From: a virus
Taxonomy: Duplodnaviria; Heunggongvirae; Uroviricota; Caudoviricetes
Strand: one strand, 5' to 3'
DNA length: 40,690 bases
IMG/VR virus record: IMGVR_UViG_2541047843_000008
Positions 3,367 to 35,359 of the stretch are shown here, piece by piece. How positions within the stretch are numbered: position 1 is the first letter of the stretch; each line of letters starts with the position of its first letter. The position numbers and the translations under genes were made by a program. A model generated the notes under the pieces. It was not told the DNA's origin. It was given only the letters and a program-made list of their open reading frames with translations, and ran no database searches.

Positions 3367-3395
3367 TGCCCGCAATATTTTGCGGGCTTTTTTTT
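3367..3395 (+). terminator. Rho-independent terminator, plus-strand orientation only
   Basis: Stem GCCCGCAA / TTGCGGGC followed by 8 T on the plus strand; abuts the tailspike stop. Confidence 0.5.
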
Positions 3396-6300
3396 AACGT
3401 TCTTCCAGAGACTGAACCCGCTCTTTTATCTTATCCATTTCTCTGCGCTGCCATGCTGCCTCGATATAGAATAAGAGATCAGGTCTGACCCCCCATCTAG
3501 ATCCTGCTGGCGTTATTTCAACGCGCTCAATGATGTCTTCCATTACCATCACTGGATTATCATCCTCATCAACAATGATGCTCCCGTCATTATCAGTCAG
3601 CGGCATTTCCCTTTGGCCAGTAATGACGTCATCATATACTGCGGGATAATCGTCATAGCAAAGAAAGGCATAGCGGCATGTTGTGCTTTCTTCTTCCATG
3701 AGTCCGTGAGAAATAAGAACATCACGAAGTTGCTGCGCGATTACACCATGATGTATCCTCGCCCCTTCTTCCCCCTTTATAGCGACAGCGTTCAGCCATT
3801 TATAAGCGATATACCTGACGTCACCCCAGGCATCCAGCAATGCTTCGTCAGGAGAGACAGGCTCTGTCTTTAATGTTCCGTCACTGGTAACCACAGGATT
3901 GGAGCCAAGATAAACTGTCGAGAACCTGTTTCCCGGACCACCAAGAGCATTTACATTATCAAGATAAGGTTTAACATCTCCGTTCTCAAAAAGATGTTCG
4001 AGTGCGTTATATACCGCGCGACGTGGAGTACTGCTTCCGGAACCATGCAACGTTATCATTGCACCATCTGCTGAAGACGTTGTTTCACCGCCGCTAACGA
4101 TTAATCTCTGAGCGGTAACATCATCAGACGGTACTTTCTTCGCAATAATGGCGTAATTACCCTCAAGTTTGACTTCCGCGCGAACTTGTCCTGATGTACC
4201 TGCATGGACAGTCAGTGACTGGACGGCAACATCATCTGTGAAATCAACGGGTACAGGAACCGTCCTCACGCCTGACGTCGACATAAAAGTAGGAAGCGTT
4301 CTGTTAGGAGTGGCTCCGTAGACAAAATCCCTTGAAACAAATTCTTCCTGTTTAATTTTCACCCTGAAACAATACAAATCAGCCGGGTGACCATCGTGAA
4401 CATAAGGATATTTTCTGTTGTTATCCCCTATGCTCCATGGGTTTAGAAAGTCTTCCCCACCGAAAATGTAGTACAGCCAGTTGTCTTTGATACAAACTGA
4501 ACCAACACCAACCGCAGAGTTAACTATTCCGCCCTGATAAATCTGATCAGTAACATTAACCCACTCTACATTATCCAGACTCCACTCATTGACGTTAACT
4601 CTGGTCATAAATGTTCTTGGATAATTTCCTGCATAACGGTTATCAGGTTCTCCTCCTTCCCACTCACCAAATGCGCGCTCACTGCCAAAAATAATCAGCT
4701 CATCGCCAACTTTGGCAAAAGGAAGGTTTGAGTGATGAACATTATTTGGGAAGCGAAGAGAATTCCATGATGTACCTAAATCAGAGCTTCTGTGCAATGA
4801 ACTACCGGGTTGAGTACTTAATGTCCCCCTGGTCGTCAGATACAGAATGCCATCATAATATTTTACACATGGCTCAGATGCATTCGCCTCATATTCTACA
4901 GGTATGCGTCTGCGAACAAAGCTACCAGGAGAACCGAAAGCATCAGAGAAATAGAGTATCCCAAGCTCGCGTGGACCAATATCACCATTATGGTAGCCAA
5001 CAGCAAAACTGTTATCGCTAATCGTCGCAAAACTGTGAATCTCAGTAACAGGAGTGCTTCCGTCAACAAAAGAAGGAATAGTTCCAAGACTGGTTTTTCT
5101 CCATGGTGACGAGTGAAATGATGTGCCAAAACTCCAGTATCTACCCTCGTTATTCTGATCCACATCCTGGGTATTTTGCGTCGTAACTGTAAAGGTATTT
5201 TTATCAATAACAGTAGTCACCGTCATATTCCCGGTAACACCTGTAACACCAGAGTTTGAGAAGTTGACAAAATCACCAGCAAATAATCCGTGATCAGTAA
5301 TGCGAATATAAGCGACTTGCTGATTTGCTGCTTTCGTTATACCACCATAAACGCGAAGGCTGCGACTCATTGGGCGATCCCACAACTCTGCAACCTGCAG
5401 TTTATTTCCTCTCACGGTCCGCGTCTCAATTACAGCAAAAAGGCGATTTCTGACAACCCCCATACTCATGCAGTGATAGTTAACTGTGGGATAGTTTTCA
5501 TGTAAATCTGTAAGCCATTCCGGCGTTGTCCAGGTCTTCCCGTCATCTCCTGAGCGAACCCATGCAACATGGAGGTTATTTACACCATGGCGGTCTCCAG
5601 CCATAAAAGGCGCATAGATGACATTGTCATATACAAACGTTTTATCCTGCGTCCAGGCGTTGTACCACGGTGTATCTGTAATTTTAAATAACTCTCCCTG
5701 GATAAAATCTTCAGAAGCATAAAAAAGAGGCTGGCCCGGTATTCTCTCAAATAAAAAACGAGCATTTTTAAATCGACTGACATCCGGAAGAGTTGATACT
5801 TTAAAAGTAAGCCCTAATCCGTCAATTTTATAACCTGGAGATGAGGCTTCAAGGCACGCGCTTATTGCAGTGGAATCGTCATTTATACCATCACCAACAG
5901 CTCCAAAATCTTTGGGGCTAATAGCATCACGCATTTTATCCTGGAACGTTCGGTACACAGCCCCAGAACCATACTGAATAAACCAACCAAAACCACCAAC
6001 AACCCCGGCGATTGCAGCATCGACATAATTACGCATTGAGCGATTATTTACAGCGTCCTGCTCAAGTGATGGATCTGCAAGGTTAGAAATTTTGTTTTGC
6101 TTTGCATCGTAATATTTTGCAAGCAAAGATGGTTTCATCAATGCACGTCTGAACCACCCAAAACATTGCTGGATCAGCATCGTCAGGTAGTCAAAAGCAT
6201 CTTCATGCACTTCGGGGAAAAATTTTCCCTGATTGCGAAGGTCTGTCTCCTGCACTACATCAAGCACACGATCTATCGTAATTCGCCATCCAGCAGCAAG

Positions 6301-6513
6301 CGGAGACGGAAGAACAACAGAACCGCCACTATAAGTGCCCGCCCCAGTTACCGTATAACCGGTATCCAGAACCAATTCTGTTACGTTCCCGTTCAGGTCA
6401 GACACCTGAACAACCAGGTCGGATTTTTTGAAAATACGGAAGGTATACGGAAATGATGTCGTAACGCCGTTACCTGTGTATTCGTTGTGGTCAACTTCGG
6501 TTGAGACCGTCAT
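3394..6513 (-). CDS. Tailspike/tail fibre: T7 gp17-like N-terminal anchor, depolymerase domain with sialidase-type Asp-boxes (candidate endosialidase), C-terminal intramolecular chaperone (S74-like) domain
   Basis: N-terminal ~120 aa with gp17-like pattern; DFGAVGDGINDDS; Asp-boxes SGDDGKTW and SSDLGTSW; C-terminal VTSDGTLKTEP...HHGVIAQQ chaperone-like region. Confidence 0.85.
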   Translation of the reverse strand: MTVSTEVDHNEYTGNGVTTSFPYTFRIFKKSDLVVQVSDLNGNVTELVLDTGYTVTGAGTYSGGSVVLPSPLAAGWRITIDRVLDVVQETDLRNQGKFFPEVHEDAFDYLTMLIQQCFGWFRRALMKPSLLAKYYDAKQNKISNLADPSLEQDAVNNRSMRNYVDAAIAGVVGGFGWFIQYGSGAVYRTFQDKMRDAISPKDFGAVGDGINDDSTAISACLEASSPGYKIDGLGLTFKVSTLPDVSRFKNARFLFERIPGQPLFYASEDFIQGELFKITDTPWYNAWTQDKTFVYDNVIYAPFMAGDRHGVNNLHVAWVRSGDDGKTWTTPEWLTDLHENYPTVNYHCMSMGVVRNRLFAVIETRTVRGNKLQVAELWDRPMSRSLRVYGGITKAANQQVAYIRITDHGLFAGDFVNFSNSGVTGVTGNMTVTTVIDKNTFTVTTQNTQDVDQNNEGRYWSFGTSFHSSPWRKTSLGTIPSFVDGSTPVTEIHSFATISDNSFAVGYHNGDIGPRELGILYFSDAFGSPGSFVRRRIPVEYEANASEPCVKYYDGILYLTTRGTLSTQPGSSLHRSSDLGTSWNSLRFPNNVHHSNLPFAKVGDELIIFGSERAFGEWEGGEPDNRYAGNYPRTFMTRVNVNEWSLDNVEWVNVTDQIYQGGIVNSAVGVGSVCIKDNWLYYIFGGEDFLNPWSIGDNNRKYPYVHDGHPADLYCFRVKIKQEEFVSRDFVYGATPNRTLPTFMSTSGVRTVPVPVDFTDDVAVQSLTVHAGTSGQVRAEVKLEGNYAIIAKKVPSDDVTAQRLIVSGGETTSSADGAMITLHGSGSSTPRRAVYNALEHLFENGDVKPYLDNVNALGGPGNRFSTVYLGSNPVVTSDGTLKTEPVSPDEALLDAWGDVRYIAYKWLNAVAIKGEEGARIHHGVIAQQLRDVLISHGLMEEESTTCRYAFLCYDDYPAVYDDVITGQREMPLTDNDGSIIVDEDDNPVMVMEDIIERVEITPAGSRWGVRPDLLFYIEAAWQRREMDKIKERVQSLEER

Positions 6514-6617
6514 GTTAAATCTCCAGATAGTCGCAGCACCCGTTGCGCCGCATATCTGGTTATTCTATTACCTGAAAAACCACATATGGATAGATAACCC
6601 ATAAATACGAAAAGATA

Positions 6618-6632
6618 TTACCTTTCAGGTGA
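6618..6632. promoter_or_regulatory. Operator-like palindrome variant TTACCTTTCAGGTGA
   Basis: One-mismatch copy of the recurring TTACCT-N3-AGGTAA palindrome, between the tailspike start and a plus-strand moron. Confidence 0.4.
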
Positions 6633-6669
6633 TTTGCAAAACGTGCTGGATAGCAAACAAATTATTTGA

Positions 6670-6689
6670 TACTGTATATTTATACAGTT
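6670..6689. promoter_or_regulatory. LexA (SOS) box upstream of the small antirepressor-like gene
   Basis: TACTGTATATTTATACAGTT fits CTGT-N8-ACAG with AT-rich spacer; 20-40 nt upstream of the ATG candidates at 6695 and 6710. Confidence 0.6.
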
Positions 6690-6709
6690 ATTGCATGGAG
6701 AAGATTAAG

Positions 6710-6967
6710 ATGCAGCAGTATCACTATCCACTGGAAGACGGATTTACCGAAAGGATTCACACGCCGGGAGGCGTCAGGTCACTGGTGGAGGGATCGCACT
6801 TGATGAAATTACTCCGGGATCTCGATAAGGATGGATTTAATGTCGATGGCCCACTTGCCGAACTGACTGCACTGATTAACTACGTCACCAGCTCACAGAT
6901 GTCTATGCAGGATCTGCAAACACATCTCGACTATTGTGCCGAACAATTACGAAAACAAACCAGATAA
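6710..6967 (+). CDS. Small antirepressor-like protein: stand-alone paralog of the C-terminal domain of the neighbouring antirepressor (Tum-like candidate); alternative start 6695
   Basis: About 80 aa align with the C-terminus of the 7285..7941 product (e.g. [36 protein letters not shown]); GGAG 9 nt upstream of ATG. Confidence 0.5.
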   Translation: MQQYHYPLEDGFTERIHTPGGVRSLVEGSHLMKLLRDLDKDGFNVDGPLAELTALINYVTSSQMSMQDLQTHLDYCAEQLRKQTR

Positions 6968-6998
6968 GGTTTGCAATTACCAAGTGGAGTGCTTATAT

Positions 6999-7013
6999 TT
7001 ACCTTTTCGGTAA
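6999..7013. promoter_or_regulatory. Operator-like palindrome TTACCTTTTCGGTAA
   Basis: Copy of recurring TTACC-N5-GGTAA palindrome downstream of the small ant-like gene. Confidence 0.45.
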
Positions 7014-7104
7014 ATTTACATCGCACTCCTCTTGTGCCATAGTAATCGGGCACTGGCAAAATCCAGTGCCGGGATTGGTCTCCCGGATTACTAAGTGGCG
7101 CATA

Positions 7105-7127
7105 CCACGCCAGACGTGGTTTTTTTA
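7105..7127 (+). terminator. Rho-independent terminator after the small antirepressor-like gene
   Basis: Stem CCACG / CGTGG with 5-nt loop followed by 8 T. Confidence 0.5.
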
Positions 7128-7284
7128 TGCGTATAGCACAGTCATGCCAGAATTATGGTGGGCTGAATGGGGGTCCGAAAGGACGCCGGTACCACTTAGG
7201 CCGGTAAGACCAACTCCGTTCAGTTCACCACCATCTGATTGGTCTCAGCGGTGGTGATGTAATTCGCTAAGTGGAGACGCCATC

Positions 7285-7941
7285 ATGAACGCTCAACTCA
7301 TCCCCGTATTCAACGGCACTATATCTAACGAAACAGCCCTACTTTGTAATGCCCGCGATCTGCACGCTTTTTTAGGTGTTAAAAAGGTGTTTGCAGCATG
7401 GATTACAAATCGCATATCAGAATACGAATTCATTGAAAATCAAGACTATATTTTGCTTTCCAATTTGGGAAAGCAAACATCTGGTAGAGGCGGCCACAAC
7501 CGCAAAGAGTACCACCTCACCCTTGATACAGCCAAAGAGCTGGCGATGGTCGAGCGTAACGAAAAAGGTCGCCAGGTGCGACGCTACTTCATTGAATGCG
7601 AGAAACGTTTAAGACAACAAGAAACAAAAGTGGAGAAGGTCTTGTCAGGCTTCATGCCCGCCATAATGGAGGCGATCAAGCTGGAAGACAAAAAAGAATA
7701 CAGCGCCCCACTGAAGCCCGGCTACCGCAGCCTGATTCATTCGCCGTCTGGTGTTCTCGGCCTGACGGAGAACTCACTGCTGATGAATCTGCTGAACCAG
7801 TTACAGGACGACGGGCACGACGTATCGGGCGCGGCGGCGGAGCTGACCACCATGTTCTGCTACATCGTCGGTGTGAGCAAATGCCTGCGTGATATCCAGA
7901 CCCACGCGGAGTACATCAACGACAAGGCAGGGTTCTTCTGA
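7285..7941 (+). CDS. Antirepressor-like protein (N-terminal Ant-type domain plus C-terminal domain shared with 6710..6967)
   Basis: N-terminus resembles phage antirepressor N-terminal domains as recalled; SD GGAGA upstream; C-terminal paralogy seen directly. Confidence 0.6.
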
Positions 7942-8013: not shown

Positions 8014-8028
8014 TTACCTTAAAGGTAA
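8014..8028. promoter_or_regulatory. Operator palindrome TTACCTTAAAGGTAA upstream of the two-gene cassette
   Basis: Perfect TTACCT-N3-AGGTAA palindrome 43 nt upstream of the ATG at 8071. Confidence 0.5.
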
Positions 8029-8070: not shown

Positions 8071-8397
8071 ATGACAAAACTTGGATTCGTGATGAGAGGT
8101 CCGGTAAGAAGCGGAACTCATGCAAAGCGTAGCAAGAGTCGTATTTTTACTGGTAAGGTTGTAGCACGTAAATCAGCTATTGGCTCGTTCAATAGTGAAA
8201 ATGCGGCATTGCGCCATATTTTTATCAGCACAAAGCCAAGAGCATCCGCTGATGTGCATACAATGTCTATTCCTATCACAAAGAATATCAAGCGGATAAA
8301 AAAGCTCTCATCTGCAGAATCAAAAGAGATATCTTTCCGCCAGCTTAACTCATTAGAAACGCATATGAAGGAAGAGGAATTCGATGTTTTTGAGTGA
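8071..8397 (+). CDS. Hypothetical basic protein, first gene of unassigned two-gene cassette
   Basis: ATG with GGAG SD; K/R/S-rich N-terminus; AT-rich moron-like composition. Confidence 0.5.
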   Translation: MTKLGFVMRGPVRSGTHAKRSKSRIFTGKVVARKSAIGSFNSENAALRHIFISTKPRASADVHTMSIPITKNIKRIKKLSSAESKEISFRQLNSLETHMKEEEFDVFE

Positions 8398-8896
8398 GTA
8401 TAGCGGGAAGGTTATACCTACTGGTGAGTTTAAAACTGATGACTTTCTGATTTCGCTAAAAGATGCTTTTAAACAACACTGGCGTCATGGTCATCATCCT
8501 GATCTGGGAAAAGATACTCTTTTTGAAAGACCAGACGAAGTATTAGGCTTCCATCTCAGAAAGGTTCATGTCAATATTGGTGAATATGCATCATATTCAT
8601 ACTCATGTACTGAACAGTGTTGGGATGAGTGGTCATATGGATTGATTGATGAACAAGGAAATTACAGGCCAAAACCAACCAGTAACGCATATCTCATATA
8701 TGCAGTCAATGAAATAAGAGATGCAGCCTTACTAGCTTATTGGGACCCGCCCGCACACACCAAAGCTAACGCAAAAGTTTGGATGGATTCCGTATTGAAT
8801 TTCACAAAATTATTTCATGAACGAACGAATACAGCTCCACTTAGTAGAAATGTTTATCCGTGGGATTATTCGTACAAATCCAAAAAGCCTGCATAG
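8384..8896 (+). CDS. Hypothetical protein, second gene of cassette (His-rich segment HWRHGHHPD)
   Basis: ORF overlaps upstream gene end by 14 nt (translational coupling); no recognisable family. Confidence 0.5.
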   Translation: MFLSEYSGKVIPTGEFKTDDFLISLKDAFKQHWRHGHHPDLGKDTLFERPDEVLGFHLRKVHVNIGEYASYSYSCTEQCWDEWSYGLIDEQGNYRPKPTSNAYLIYAVNEIRDAALLAYWDPPAHTKANAKVWMDSVLNFTKLFHERTNTAPLSRNVYPWDYSYKSKKPA

Positions 8897-8977
8897 TAGT
8901 TTTTTATGGACGAAACAAAAGTCAGTGCTACACTCATTGACGCCACATTGAGGTGGCTTATAGATGGAAATGTCACA

Positions 8978-9139
8978 ATGAAAAAAGCATTTGCTGCACT
9001 GTTCGTTTTGTTGTCTCTGGTAGCTTCAACTCAGGCCTTTGCCGGTCGTTGTCAGCACGACAGCGACACTGCTGCTGACGGCTCACGCTGCGGTGGGCGT
9101 TCTGCGGATTCCCGCCCAGGCGGCGGTGGCATTCGTTAA
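8978..9139 (+). CDS. Small secreted Cys-containing peptide (signal peptide MKKAFAALFVLLSLVASTQAFA)
   Basis: Internal ATG begins a canonical signal peptide; about 30-aa mature part with 2 Cys and a Gly-rich tail. Confidence 0.4.
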   Translation: MKKAFAALFVLLSLVASTQAFAGRCQHDSDTAADGSRCGGRSADSRPGGGGIR

Positions 9140-9161
9140 AAACAAGGCCGCGAAAGCGGCC
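9136..9161 (-). terminator. Rho-independent terminator for the minus-strand membrane gene
   Basis: Stem GGCCGC / GCGGCC with GAAA loop; U-run on the minus-strand side (TTGTTTTT). Confidence 0.5.
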
Positions 9162-9170
9162 TGTGACATG

Positions 9171-21713: not shown

Positions 21714-21733
21714 GTGGGTCTGTTACGACCCAC
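21714..21733 (-). other. Stem-loop (GTGGGTC / GACCCAC) between capsid and next gene
   Basis: 7-bp inverted repeat with 6-nt loop, followed on the minus strand by GGAG and ATG. Confidence 0.4.
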
Positions 21734-26069: not shown

Positions 26070-26146
26070 GTGGCATTAGCTCAGTCGGACAGAGCAACCG
26101 CCTTCTAAGCGGTTGGTCGCAGGTTCGAATCCTGCATGCCACGCCA
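26070..26146 (+). tRNA. tRNA-Arg (anticodon UCU, reads AGA), phage-encoded
   Basis: Cloverleaf read by hand: acceptor GTGGCAT/ATGCCAC, D-arm GCTC..GAGC, anticodon loop CUUCUAA, T-arm GCAGGTTCGAATCCTGC, discriminator G, CCA end. Confidence 0.9.
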
Positions 26147-34389: not shown

Positions 34390-34620
34390 TCATGAGTAGA
34401 AGAAGTATGCCAGTTCTGCTTTTGAGCGCAGCCATTGTCTTGTTTTACAGGCTTTAAAAAGCCCATTCATCAATACCTTACCTGGCATTTTGCGCTTGCC
34501 TGTTAAGTGAGTCTGGATATAGTGACTCGTCGTTCCGGCTTCCTGTGCGAAGGCTTCACGCTCATCCGGAGTAAGTGCAAGCCAGTGCTTTTTGAAATCG
34601 AAATGTCCGTTATCGCTCAT
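34390..34620 (-). CDS. Cro-like HTH regulator
   Basis: 76 aa, HTH-like segment, divergent from the repressor gene across the operator cluster. Confidence 0.55.
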   Translation of the reverse strand: MSDNGHFDFKKHWLALTPDEREAFAQEAGTTSHYIQTHLTGKRKMPGKVLMNGLFKACKTRQWLRSKAELAYFFYS

Positions 34621-34656: not shown

Positions 34657-34720
34657 TCACCCATAAGGTAACAAAAATCAAGGATAGTTACCTATGAGGT
34701 GCATTTACCTGTTGGGTAAT
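34657..34720. promoter_or_regulatory. Immunity-region operator cluster: three TTACC-N5-GGTAA-type palindromes between the divergent Cro-like and repressor genes
   Basis: TCACCCATAAGGTAA, TTACCTATGAGGTGC, TTACCTGTTGGGTAA at about 34657-34671, 34688-34702, 34706-34720. Confidence 0.55.
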
Positions 34721-34774: not shown

Positions 34775-35359
34775 ATGAAAAGTATCCAGGACGTCCGCAG
34801 GCAAAATCTCAACGACTTGATCGACCGTGAATTCAATGGTGTTCAGACGCGGATGGCAGAAAAACTTGGAACTCAGGCAAATCTGGTAAACCGCTGGGCT
34901 CTTGGCAAGAAGGTTATCGGCGACCAGGTTGCACGAAAAATTGAAGCTGCCGCCAATAAACCCCGTAACTGGCTTGATATTGATCGTTCGCTTTCTCAGG
35001 AGGGTTTTCAGCCTGTCGGCCCGAGCGATATAGGTCAGCTGGCGGCTCACAATCTGGAACGCTGGATGAGCGAAAGCCGCGACCTTTCAACACAGGGAAA
35101 ACTTCACCGCGCATCCGGCGTCGCCCAGGTGACAATCAGCCGCCTGTTAAACAATGAGGTCAGCGTTTCCATTTCCACCCTGGAGAATGTTGCATCCGCA
35201 TTCGGGCGTCACGGATATGAACTACTGATTCACCCGCACGACCCTGCGACTATCAACTATGACCGCTCACGCTACGCATTGTTACCCGAAACCGAGAAAG
35301 CAAAGATCGAAAGTTACATTGAATTTGTCATCAACCAGAACGAAAAAAGCAAACAATAA
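34775..35359 (+). CDS. Repressor candidate with two XRE-type HTH domains and no LexA-like autocleavage domain
   Basis: HTH-like segments VQTRMAEKLGTQANLVNRWALGKK and LHRASGVAQVTISRLLNNEVSVSISTLENVASAFG; own terminator downstream. Confidence 0.6.
   Translation: MKSIQDVRRQNLNDLIDREFNGVQTRMAEKLGTQANLVNRWALGKKVIGDQVARKIEAAANKPRNWLDIDRSLSQEGFQPVGPSDIGQLAAHNLERWMSESRDLSTQGKLHRASGVAQVTISRLLNNEVSVSISTLENVASAFGRHGYELLIHPHDPATINYDRSRYALLPETEKAKIESYIEFVINQNEKSKQ

Follow-up and report, generated by a model that had tools for sequence, protein, structure and literature searches.

Organization of the ant locus

The 40,690-nt stretch of DNA analyzed here (the window) carries a small antirepressor gene, ant, at the distal end of the late operon. 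It diverges from the tailspike gene across a 196-bp intergenic region (6514-6709) that holds both a LexA box and a probable operator of the phage repressor, Rep. A second and larger antirepressor gene lies downstream of ant, and the repressor gene lies far to the right in a divergent pair with a cro-like gene. The features discussed below are collected in Table 1.

Table 1. Positions of genes, RNAs, and control elements in the window
Feature	Coordinates	Strand	Basis or detail
Tailspike gene	3394-6513	minus	precedes a series of long structural genes
Probable Rep operator TTACCTTTCAGGTGA	6618-6632	none	tailspike-ant intergenic region
Candidate ant promoter	6647-6675	+	conservation; -35 TGGATA 6647-6652, -10 TACTGT 6670-6675
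LexA box TACTGTATATTTATACAGTT	6670-6689	none	consensus search and weight matrix
Small antirepressor gene ant	6710-6967	+	85 aa; Shine-Dalgarno GGAG 6697-6700
Cassette control region	6971-7043	+	promoter scan
Promoter candidate TTGCAA-17-TATATT	6971-6999	+	promoter scan
Probable Rep operator TTACCTTTTCGGTAA	6999-7013		between the two cassette promoter candidates
Promoter candidate TTTACA-17-CATAGT	7015-7043	+	promoter scan
IsrK-like RNA	7050-7126	+	Rfam isrK (RF01394), 67.7 bits, gathering 50
Predicted c4 targets in the IsrK-like RNA	a1 7075-7081; b1 7091-7098	+	complementarity to c4
Intrinsic terminator ending the IsrK-like RNA	7104-7126	+	terminator scan
c4-type antisense RNA	7151-7235	+	Rfam C4 (RF01695), 61.2 bits, gathering 45
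c4 elements	loop b' CCACTTAG 7192-7199; a' AGACCAA 7207-7213	+	
Predicted downstream c4 targets	a2 TTGGTCT 7239-7245; b2 CTAAGTGG 7267-7274	+	complementarity
Large antirepressor gene	7285-7941	+	218 aa; AntA N-terminal domain, Ant-like C-terminal domain (~137-213)
Probable Rep operator TTACCTTAAAGGTAA	8014-8028	none	ahead of ORF pair 8071-8896
Hairpin terminator common to SPC32H	9145-9162	none	terminator scan
Rep/cro-like divergent pair	near 34.4-35.4 kb		
Divergent cro-like gene	34390-34620	minus	
Three clustered probable Rep operators	34657-34719	none	between rep and the cro-like gene
Repressor gene rep	34775-35359	+	194 aa; Pfam, homology to SPC32H Rep

The window is an epsilon15/phiV10-like (Uetakevirus) prophage of E. 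coli. The 1.5 kb surrounding the ant locus matched Escherichia phage phiv142-3 at 98.4% identity over its full length, and matched phiV10, TL-2011b, ZX5, and other Uetakevirus (epsilon15-like) phages at 91-95% identity over approximately 70% of its length. The Uetakevirus-like gene content, with recombination genes for RecT and YqaJ and, at the right-hand end, an integrase gene, agrees with the nucleotide matches to phiv142-3, phiV10, TL-2011b, and ZX5. The locus is common, being found at a coverage of at least 80% in 79 of the 5426 complete E. coli genomes searched. Both PGAP and the records of E. coli phages generally call the product of the small ant gene a "hypothetical protein", and the PHROGs family to which it was assigned (phrog_450) is listed as "unknown function"; the practical value of identifying it lies in annotation.

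A sequence-only reading of the window had described a small ORF of about 85 aa as a stand-alone antirepressor-domain gene, paralogous to the C-terminal domain of the antirepressor-like gene next door. This description was borne out in each part. The ORF encodes 85 aa, starting from an ATG that stands nine bases past the GGAG; an alternative in-frame ATG at 6695 lacks a Shine-Dalgarno sequence and is missing in Klebsiella orthologues. Its product (small Ant) aligned with residues 137-210 of the large antirepressor at 31 of 74 residues (42%, BLASTP E = 6e-16), and the term "stand-alone" is apt in that the C-terminal domain of the large protein itself matches the small-Ant family. By tblastn, small Ant was 88% identical over 83 aa to SPC32H_020, annotated "ant: anti-repressor protein" in Salmonella phage SPC32H. 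It was also 84% identical to epsilon15 gp19 and identical in ZX5. A phmmer search matched it to PDB 5D50 chain E, "Anti-repressor protein" (E = 4e-47), in which SPC32H Ant and Rep were crystallized together, and this SPC32H Ant was the only related protein found in the PDB search.

Neither Pfam nor NCBIfam provided a family for small Ant, and a weak match to DUF724 was dismissed (17.6 bits against a cutoff of 38.4). A wide homologue search returned almost only stand-alone proteins of ~86 aa from Enterobacterales; fused forms were absent from that listing and were seen through PHROGs and the PDB. Compared with Salmonella and Enterobacter orthologues, ant has a dN/dS of ~0.05 at a dS of ~1.5, and small Ant is thus under strong purifying selection.

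A single LexA box lies upstream of ant

The sequence-only reading had also placed a near-consensus SOS box 20-40 nt upstream of the small ORF and considered it the only LexA box in the window, and both statements were upheld. The box begins 40 nt and ends 20 nt before the ATG, and TACTGTATATTTATACAGTT differs from the 20-mer E. coli LexA consensus at two positions. It was the sole site in the window within three mismatches of this consensus, and none of 100 shuffled sequences yielded one. The window was also scanned with a weight matrix built from 23 known E. coli LexA operators. The box scored 27.4 bits (heterology index 1.67), higher than every operator in the training set (maximum 26.4). 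The runner-up reached 11.5 bits, a value equal to the median of the top scores from shuffled sequence, and the site upstream of ant is therefore the only LexA box in the window. Two further CTGT-N8-ACAG sites, at 21720 and 26262, lack an AT-rich spacer, scored at most 10.4 bits, and were rejected as LexA boxes.

To place the box in an evolutionary context, the tailspike-ant intergenic regions of nine Uetakeviruses of Escherichia, Salmonella, Enterobacter, and Klebsiella were aligned. Outside the Klebsiella phages, in which aTGT replaces CTGT in one arm, the Escherichia, Salmonella, and Enterobacter members all retain CTGT and ACAG as arms around an 8-nt spacer that differs among them. The conservation of this non-coding element is meaningful because synonymous sites in ant are near saturation and ant is under purifying selection. 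The box of the window and that of SPC32H align base for base at the equivalent position. Over the 5.2 kb compared, only two positions distinguish SPC32H from SPC32N; one of these is a C-to-A change that converts ACAG to AAAG within the box and is reportedly the mutation that makes Ant constitutive. SPC32N is reportedly a constitutive-Ant mutant.

A consensus sigma-70 scan requiring at least 9 of 12 matches found no promoter upstream of ant. In the nine-phage alignment, however, CTGGA-A, TG, and TA...T positions are invariant, and together they outline a candidate -35 and -10 element separated by a 17-nt spacer with an extended -10 TG at 6667-6668. From this conservation we propose an extended -10 promoter for ant, of which the LexA box would cover both the -10 element and the start site.

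Rep lacks an autocleavage domain and has probable operators across the window

The candidate repressor had been described as carrying two helix-turn-helix (HTH) domains and no S24 peptidase-like region, and Pfam and tblastn both agree with this. Pfam detected HTH_3 at residues 106-147 of Rep (E = 1e-9) and a weaker YdaS-type HTH at 21-61, with no match to Peptidase_S24. A tblastn search of all frames of the whole window with LexA and UmuD returned nothing S24-like (best E-value 3.3), and a hidden second S24 repressor elsewhere in the window was rejected.

Aligned over its full length, Rep shares 43% identity with SPC32H Rep, and the ZX5 protein is 99.5% identical to it. It also aligned throughout with PDB 5D50 chain A (E = 3.5e-42) and matched 5D4Z, "Repressor". 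Identity to SPC32H Rep is unevenly distributed, at 53% in the N-terminal region, 33% in the middle, and 52% in the C-terminal tail. The better conservation of the N-terminal DNA-binding region and the C-terminal tail is in line with the binding of Ant by the C-terminal domain of SPC32H Rep.

Pattern searching revealed nine exact copies of the palindrome TTACC-N5-GGTAA in the window, against 0.03 expected, and more with one mismatch; the inverted-repeat finder, at the settings used, skipped palindromes of 5+5 nt. Three copies are clustered between rep and the cro-like gene, others lie just downstream of rep, and in SPC32H the motif clusters at the equivalent rep-cro position. Within the tailspike-ant intergenic region, the TTACC and GGTAA arms are invariant in 8 of the 9 aligned Uetakevirus regions and the spacer varies; the right arm of the window's own copy reads GGTGA. 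The aligned sequence in the epsilon15 GenBank record, ATTACCTTACAGGTAAT, lies upstream of gp19 and is annotated as a repressor binding site. Taken together, these palindromes are probably Rep operators.

A probable second antirepressor lies in an inserted, probably RNA-controlled cassette

The large antirepressor was identified by Pfam AntA (E = 4e-26) and by assignment to phrog_377, "anti-repressor Ant". Its N-terminal 137 residues align with the Ant of an Stx2a phage at 81% identity and are nearly identical to it over the first ~110, and no alignment to that protein was found beyond residue 137. Its C-terminal 80 residues instead match SPC32H Ant (5D50_E, E = 8e-14) as well as PHROG 450. The head of the fused antirepressors is common to Stx phages. 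By its sequence the large antirepressor is a mosaic, and the Ant-like C-terminal domain recurs on the large antirepressors of other Uetakeviruses, although it is cut short in phiV10. The mosaic structure and the recurrence of the domain support its interpretation as a Rep-specific module, with small Ant as the stand-alone form. A recent local duplication was rejected as the source of the paralogy, given that the paralogues are 37-42% identical and the orthologues 86-88%. The Rep-binding domain appears in two settings, by itself under LexA control or joined to an AntA or Bro-N head in genes controlled by c4 RNA, and this modular picture may help to predict which repressor a given antirepressor targets.

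The sequence-only reading overlooked that this gene next door sits in a c4/IsrK-type RNA-controlled cassette of its own. Relative to SPC32H, approximately 2.2 kb (6968 to ~9140), carrying the second antirepressor and three further ORFs, separates the ant stop codon from a hairpin terminator found in both phages. This segment is regarded as an insertion because the hairpin terminator directly follows ant in SPC32H, and the cassette makes up its first part. Among the phages compared, the cassette is present in six (the window, phiv142-3, phiV10, TL-2011b, Tyrion, and Kp4865-1) and absent from SPC32H, epsilon15, BUCT554, and BUCT711.

The cassette opens with two promoter candidates flanking a TTACC-N5-GGTAA palindrome, an arrangement seen in all six cassette-bearing phages, where the arms are invariant and the spacer is variable. 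The position of this operator between the promoter candidates indicates that the cassette is probably repressed by Rep. The IsrK-like RNA that follows overlaps an Rfam c4-a1b1 match at 7037-7089, which scored 39.9 bits and is below the gathering threshold of 46.7. The c4-type RNA downstream of it has a fold z-score of -5.4. Two of its elements, CCACTTAG and AGACCAA, are perfectly complementary (7-8 nt) to TTGGTCT and CTAAGTGG, which occur both upstream (7075, 7091) and downstream (7239, 7267) of it, and the downstream b2 element overlaps the Shine-Dalgarno sequence GGAG (7272-7275) of the large antirepressor. Across the six cassette-bearing phages, the three copies of each pairing element covary and define four specificity types. 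Allele-specific covariation of this kind is a known pattern from the c4 RNAs of P1 and P7.

The cassette has in common with the P1/P7 immI region a c4 RNA, paired a1/b1 and a2/b2 elements, a b2 element placed over a ribosome-binding site, covarying specificity alleles, and an operator of the primary repressor at the cassette promoter. It differs from P1 immI in lacking icd, no ORF overlapping the ATG at 7285; in placing b2 over the antirepressor's own ribosome-binding site; in having an intrinsic terminator between a1/b1 and c4; and in that the AntA fusion is unrelated to P1 Ant. By analogy with P1 immI, the cassette would provide another antirepressor that carries the same Rep-binding module and is kept silent by Rep and c4.

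A similar arrangement exists in the isrK-orf45(STnc1160)-anrP region of Gifsy-1, with which the cassette has in common an IsrK-type RNA and its terminator, an IsrK-complementary RNA, and an antirepressor gene. In Gifsy-1, some transcripts continue past the IsrK terminator, and the RNA lying between IsrK and the antirepressor gene is a processed species complementary to IsrK (Hershko-Shalev 2016, PMC4825925). Unlike Gifsy-1, the cassette has no clear equivalent of orf45 coupled to the antirepressor; that stretch holds only an ORF of 26 aa (7127-7207) and a second one, in a different frame and starting at an internal ATG, whose end at 7257 precedes the antirepressor ATG by 28 nt. The window cassette differs further in sitting behind a LexA-controlled gene and in carrying a Uetakevirus Rep operator.

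Ant and Rep as the probable SOS-input arm of the phage switch

The SPC32H switch (Kim & Ryu 2013, J Virol 87:11775; Kim et al. 2016, PNAS 113:E2480) offers a direct precedent for this locus: its Ant is orthologous to small Ant and its Rep is homologous to that of the window. A review that cites Kim & Ryu 2013 summarizes the pathway as SOS-driven cleavage of LexA, synthesis of Ant, and inhibition of the repressor by protein-protein contact (PMC7380047). In other papers, the SPC32H Ant tetramer is described as breaking the Rep tetramer (PMC9638917), and the Rep C-terminal domain as serving both tetramerization and Ant binding (PMC9986798); the literature on the system likewise gives DNA-bound Rep as a tetramer. 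The two phages have in common the position of the LexA box, the divergent order of tailspike and ant at the distal end of the late operon, the operator palindrome, and the lack of an S24 region. The window differs in its E. coli host, in the divergence of Rep, which lies mostly in the middle domain, and in the insertion downstream of ant.

Sequence shows a LexA box and an ant gene, orthology to SPC32H for Ant, Rep, and the box alike, and no S24 domain; every feature of an SPC32H-type Ant/Rep/LexA switch that can be read from sequence is present in the window. We consider it very likely that this locus, orthologous to the Ant/Rep system of SPC32H, is the arm through which the SOS response feeds into the lysis-lysogeny switch. 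In the lysogen, host LexA bound over the -10 element and start site of the ant promoter would keep Ant off. Upon DNA damage, activated RecA would promote LexA self-cleavage and the 85-aa Ant would be made; Ant would then bind Rep and take it off its TTACC-N5-GGTAA operators without Rep being cleaved, and removal of Rep would allow expression of the lytic genes. The chain put forward in the sequence-only reading, which ran from LexA through a small antirepressor to inactivation of an uncleaved repressor, is supported and matches the orthologous system as described for SPC32H. We infer LexA binding and Ant-Rep binding in the window phage from sequence, and the latter extrapolates from SPC32H because the two Rep proteins are only 43% identical.

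The significance of the LexA-Ant finding is low, since the orthologous system has already been characterized in SPC32H. Genetic and structural work has already dissected the switch of which the window holds the E. coli orthologue, and the locus is otherwise ordinary; what it adds is only the second, RNA-controlled antirepressor cassette inserted just behind ant.

The comparison to coliphage 186 Tum and the Gifsy phages that had been drawn for this locus holds for the logic of the circuit and fails for sequence relationship. As in 186 and Fels-2 Tum and in Gifsy GfoA/GfhA, a small antirepressor repressed by LexA is paired with a non-cleavable repressor (Shearwin 1998; Lemire 2011, PMC3121763). 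Small Ant has no detectable sequence kinship to the Tum/GfoA type, as judged indirectly from the Pfam, NCBIfam, and PDB searches: it has no Pfam domain above cutoff and its only PDB relative is SPC32H Ant. The likeness is therefore functional only. Tum has a DinI-like C-terminal part, and SPC32H Ant is reported by its authors to be structurally distinct from the Tum and Gifsy antirepressors.

Alternative explanations

The presence of two antirepressors raises the question of which one is the working inducer. Small ant and its box could be an inherited leftover, with the large AntA-Ant protein acting as inducer once Rep or c4 levels fall and the SOS response playing a minor part. The large protein bears the same Ant-like domain, and in the close relative ZX5, with its identical small Ant and nearly identical Rep, overexpression of the large antirepressor reduced lysogens from 10^9 to 10^6, or ~1000-fold (PMC9782041). 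This 2022 study examined only the large antirepressor and does not mention the small gene, LexA, or SPC32H (PMC9782041). A leftover would not be expected to show the low dN/dS of ant, nor a conserved LexA box that outscores every training operator. Moreover, the cassette-free phages SPC32H, epsilon15, BUCT554, and BUCT711 rely on small Ant alone, and in phiV10 it is the Ant-like C-terminus of the large protein that has been cut short while small Ant is intact. We therefore judge it quite unlikely that ant is a relic.

Still less probable are two readings in which ant is not the link between SOS and Rep. In classical induction, RecA would stimulate self-cleavage of the repressor and the LexA-controlled gene would serve another role. 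Nothing favors this beyond its standing as the textbook default for temperate phages, and it is opposed by the lack of S24 sequence in Rep and in every frame of the window; the homologous SPC32H Rep is, in the accounts cited above, inactivated by Ant and not by cleavage. We give this reading almost no weight. It is similarly improbable, to a very high degree, that the LexA box mainly serves a divergent tailspike or late promoter rather than that of ant, or that it is a chance palindrome. The box does lie in a shared divergent region that also holds a Rep operator, yet it is 20 nt from the ant ATG and 157 nt from the tailspike start, and the shuffled sequences and the weight-matrix score exclude chance. 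The aligned change in SPC32N, its position confirmed by our alignment, is also said to alter Ant expression.

Possible coupling of the two antirepressors

If ant is the SOS-input arm of the switch, its transcripts may also reach the cassette. The terminator scan detected no terminator between the ant stop codon at 6967 and the a1/b1 element, so that ant transcripts made during the SOS response would include the IsrK-like a1/b1 decoy or terminate in it. This decoy could soak up c4 and so unlock translation of the AntA-Ant fusion, while loss of Rep through Ant would open the cassette's own Rep-controlled promoter. Such a two-stage feed-forward circuit would join an SOS-responsive protein switch to an allele-specific RNA immunity switch, and if it exists, the four c4 specificity types of the Uetakeviruses would constitute a second, RNA-based layer of immunity, as between P1 and P7. 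We consider this circuit conceivable but on balance doubtful. A selected coupling between the two is disfavored by the larger distance in TL-2011b and Kp4865-1, where an additional 0.9-1.3 kb separates the cassette from ant, and by the cassette having an operator and a promoter of its own.

Rep operators and antirepressor control

The palindrome TTACC-N5-GGTAA is strongly over-represented in the window, with 9 exact copies against 0.03 expected, and sites of this type (listed in the table) are probable Rep operators at many promoters beyond rep-cro. The same motif is in use in SPC32H, yet the Rep protein of that phage is only 43% identical to the Rep of the window.

Features of the window (nt)
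Feature	Position	Strand	Remarks
Tailspike	3394-6513	minus	complete endosialidase by domains
c4/IsrK-type RNA cassette	7037-7284		5' of large antirepressor gene
Two overlapping ORFs	8071-8397, 8384-8896	plus	3' of Rep-operator palindrome 8014-8028
Small ORF	8906-9139	plus	final gene of insertion
tRNA-Arg	26070-26146	plus	anticodon TCT
TTACC-N5-GGTAA-type sites	6618, 6999, 8014, 25733, 28898, 32362, 32424, 34657, 34688, 34705, 35417, 35479

Across six Uetakeviruses (the phage of the window and phiV10 among them), the c4 elements covary with both target pairs and fall into four specificity types. This covariation suggests an RNA-based hetero-immunity like that of P1 and P7 within the genus Uetakevirus.

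In phiV10 (L002 4107-4459, p23/p22), the C-terminal part of the large antirepressor that resembles Ant is cut off after ...SLLMN, and p22 is a separate annotated ORF of 90 nt immediately 3' of the broken-off gene; from the sequence, the large antirepressor looks to have lost its Rep-binding module by frameshift. The antirepressor of Stx2a_WGPS6 has an AntA N-terminal domain in common with the large antirepressor of the window, but its C-terminal domain is unrelated, and the RNA 5' of the gene (L012 1365-1453) is sRNA-Xcc1 (Rfam, 69 bits) rather than isrK/c4. From this comparison with Stx2a_WGPS6, RNA controller, head domain and specificity domain appear to have been exchanged independently.

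The family of the small antirepressor Ant (6710-6967) is phrog_450, of "unknown function" in PHROGs v4, has no model in Pfam or NCBIfam, and goes by the name "hypothetical protein" in almost every E. coli record. As the family has been experimentally characterised, this is an annotation gap.

Other genes of the insertion and tailspike

Downstream of the large antirepressor gene, ORF 8384-8896 has a weak match to the YafO toxin (Pfam, E = 1e-3, below cutoff), and in two E. coli genomes a gene within the matching stretch, which may be the counterpart of this ORF, is labelled by PGAP as a "type II toxin-antitoxin system YafO family toxin". The overlapping pair may constitute a Rep-controlled toxin-antitoxin or defence moron. 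The product of the last ORF combines a signal-peptide-like segment, MKKAFAALFVLLSLVASTQAFA, with a glycine-rich tail, and is assigned to phrog_3117 with a further match to phrog_14503, "membrane associated protein".

The tailspike carries the domains End_N_terminal, End_beta_propel, End_beta_barrel and End_tail_spike and the Peptidase_S74 chaperone, and a complete endosialidase of this kind makes the K1 polysialic-acid capsule the probable target of the prophage, whereas phiV10 targets O157. SPC32H has a tRNA-Arg at the position matching that of the window.
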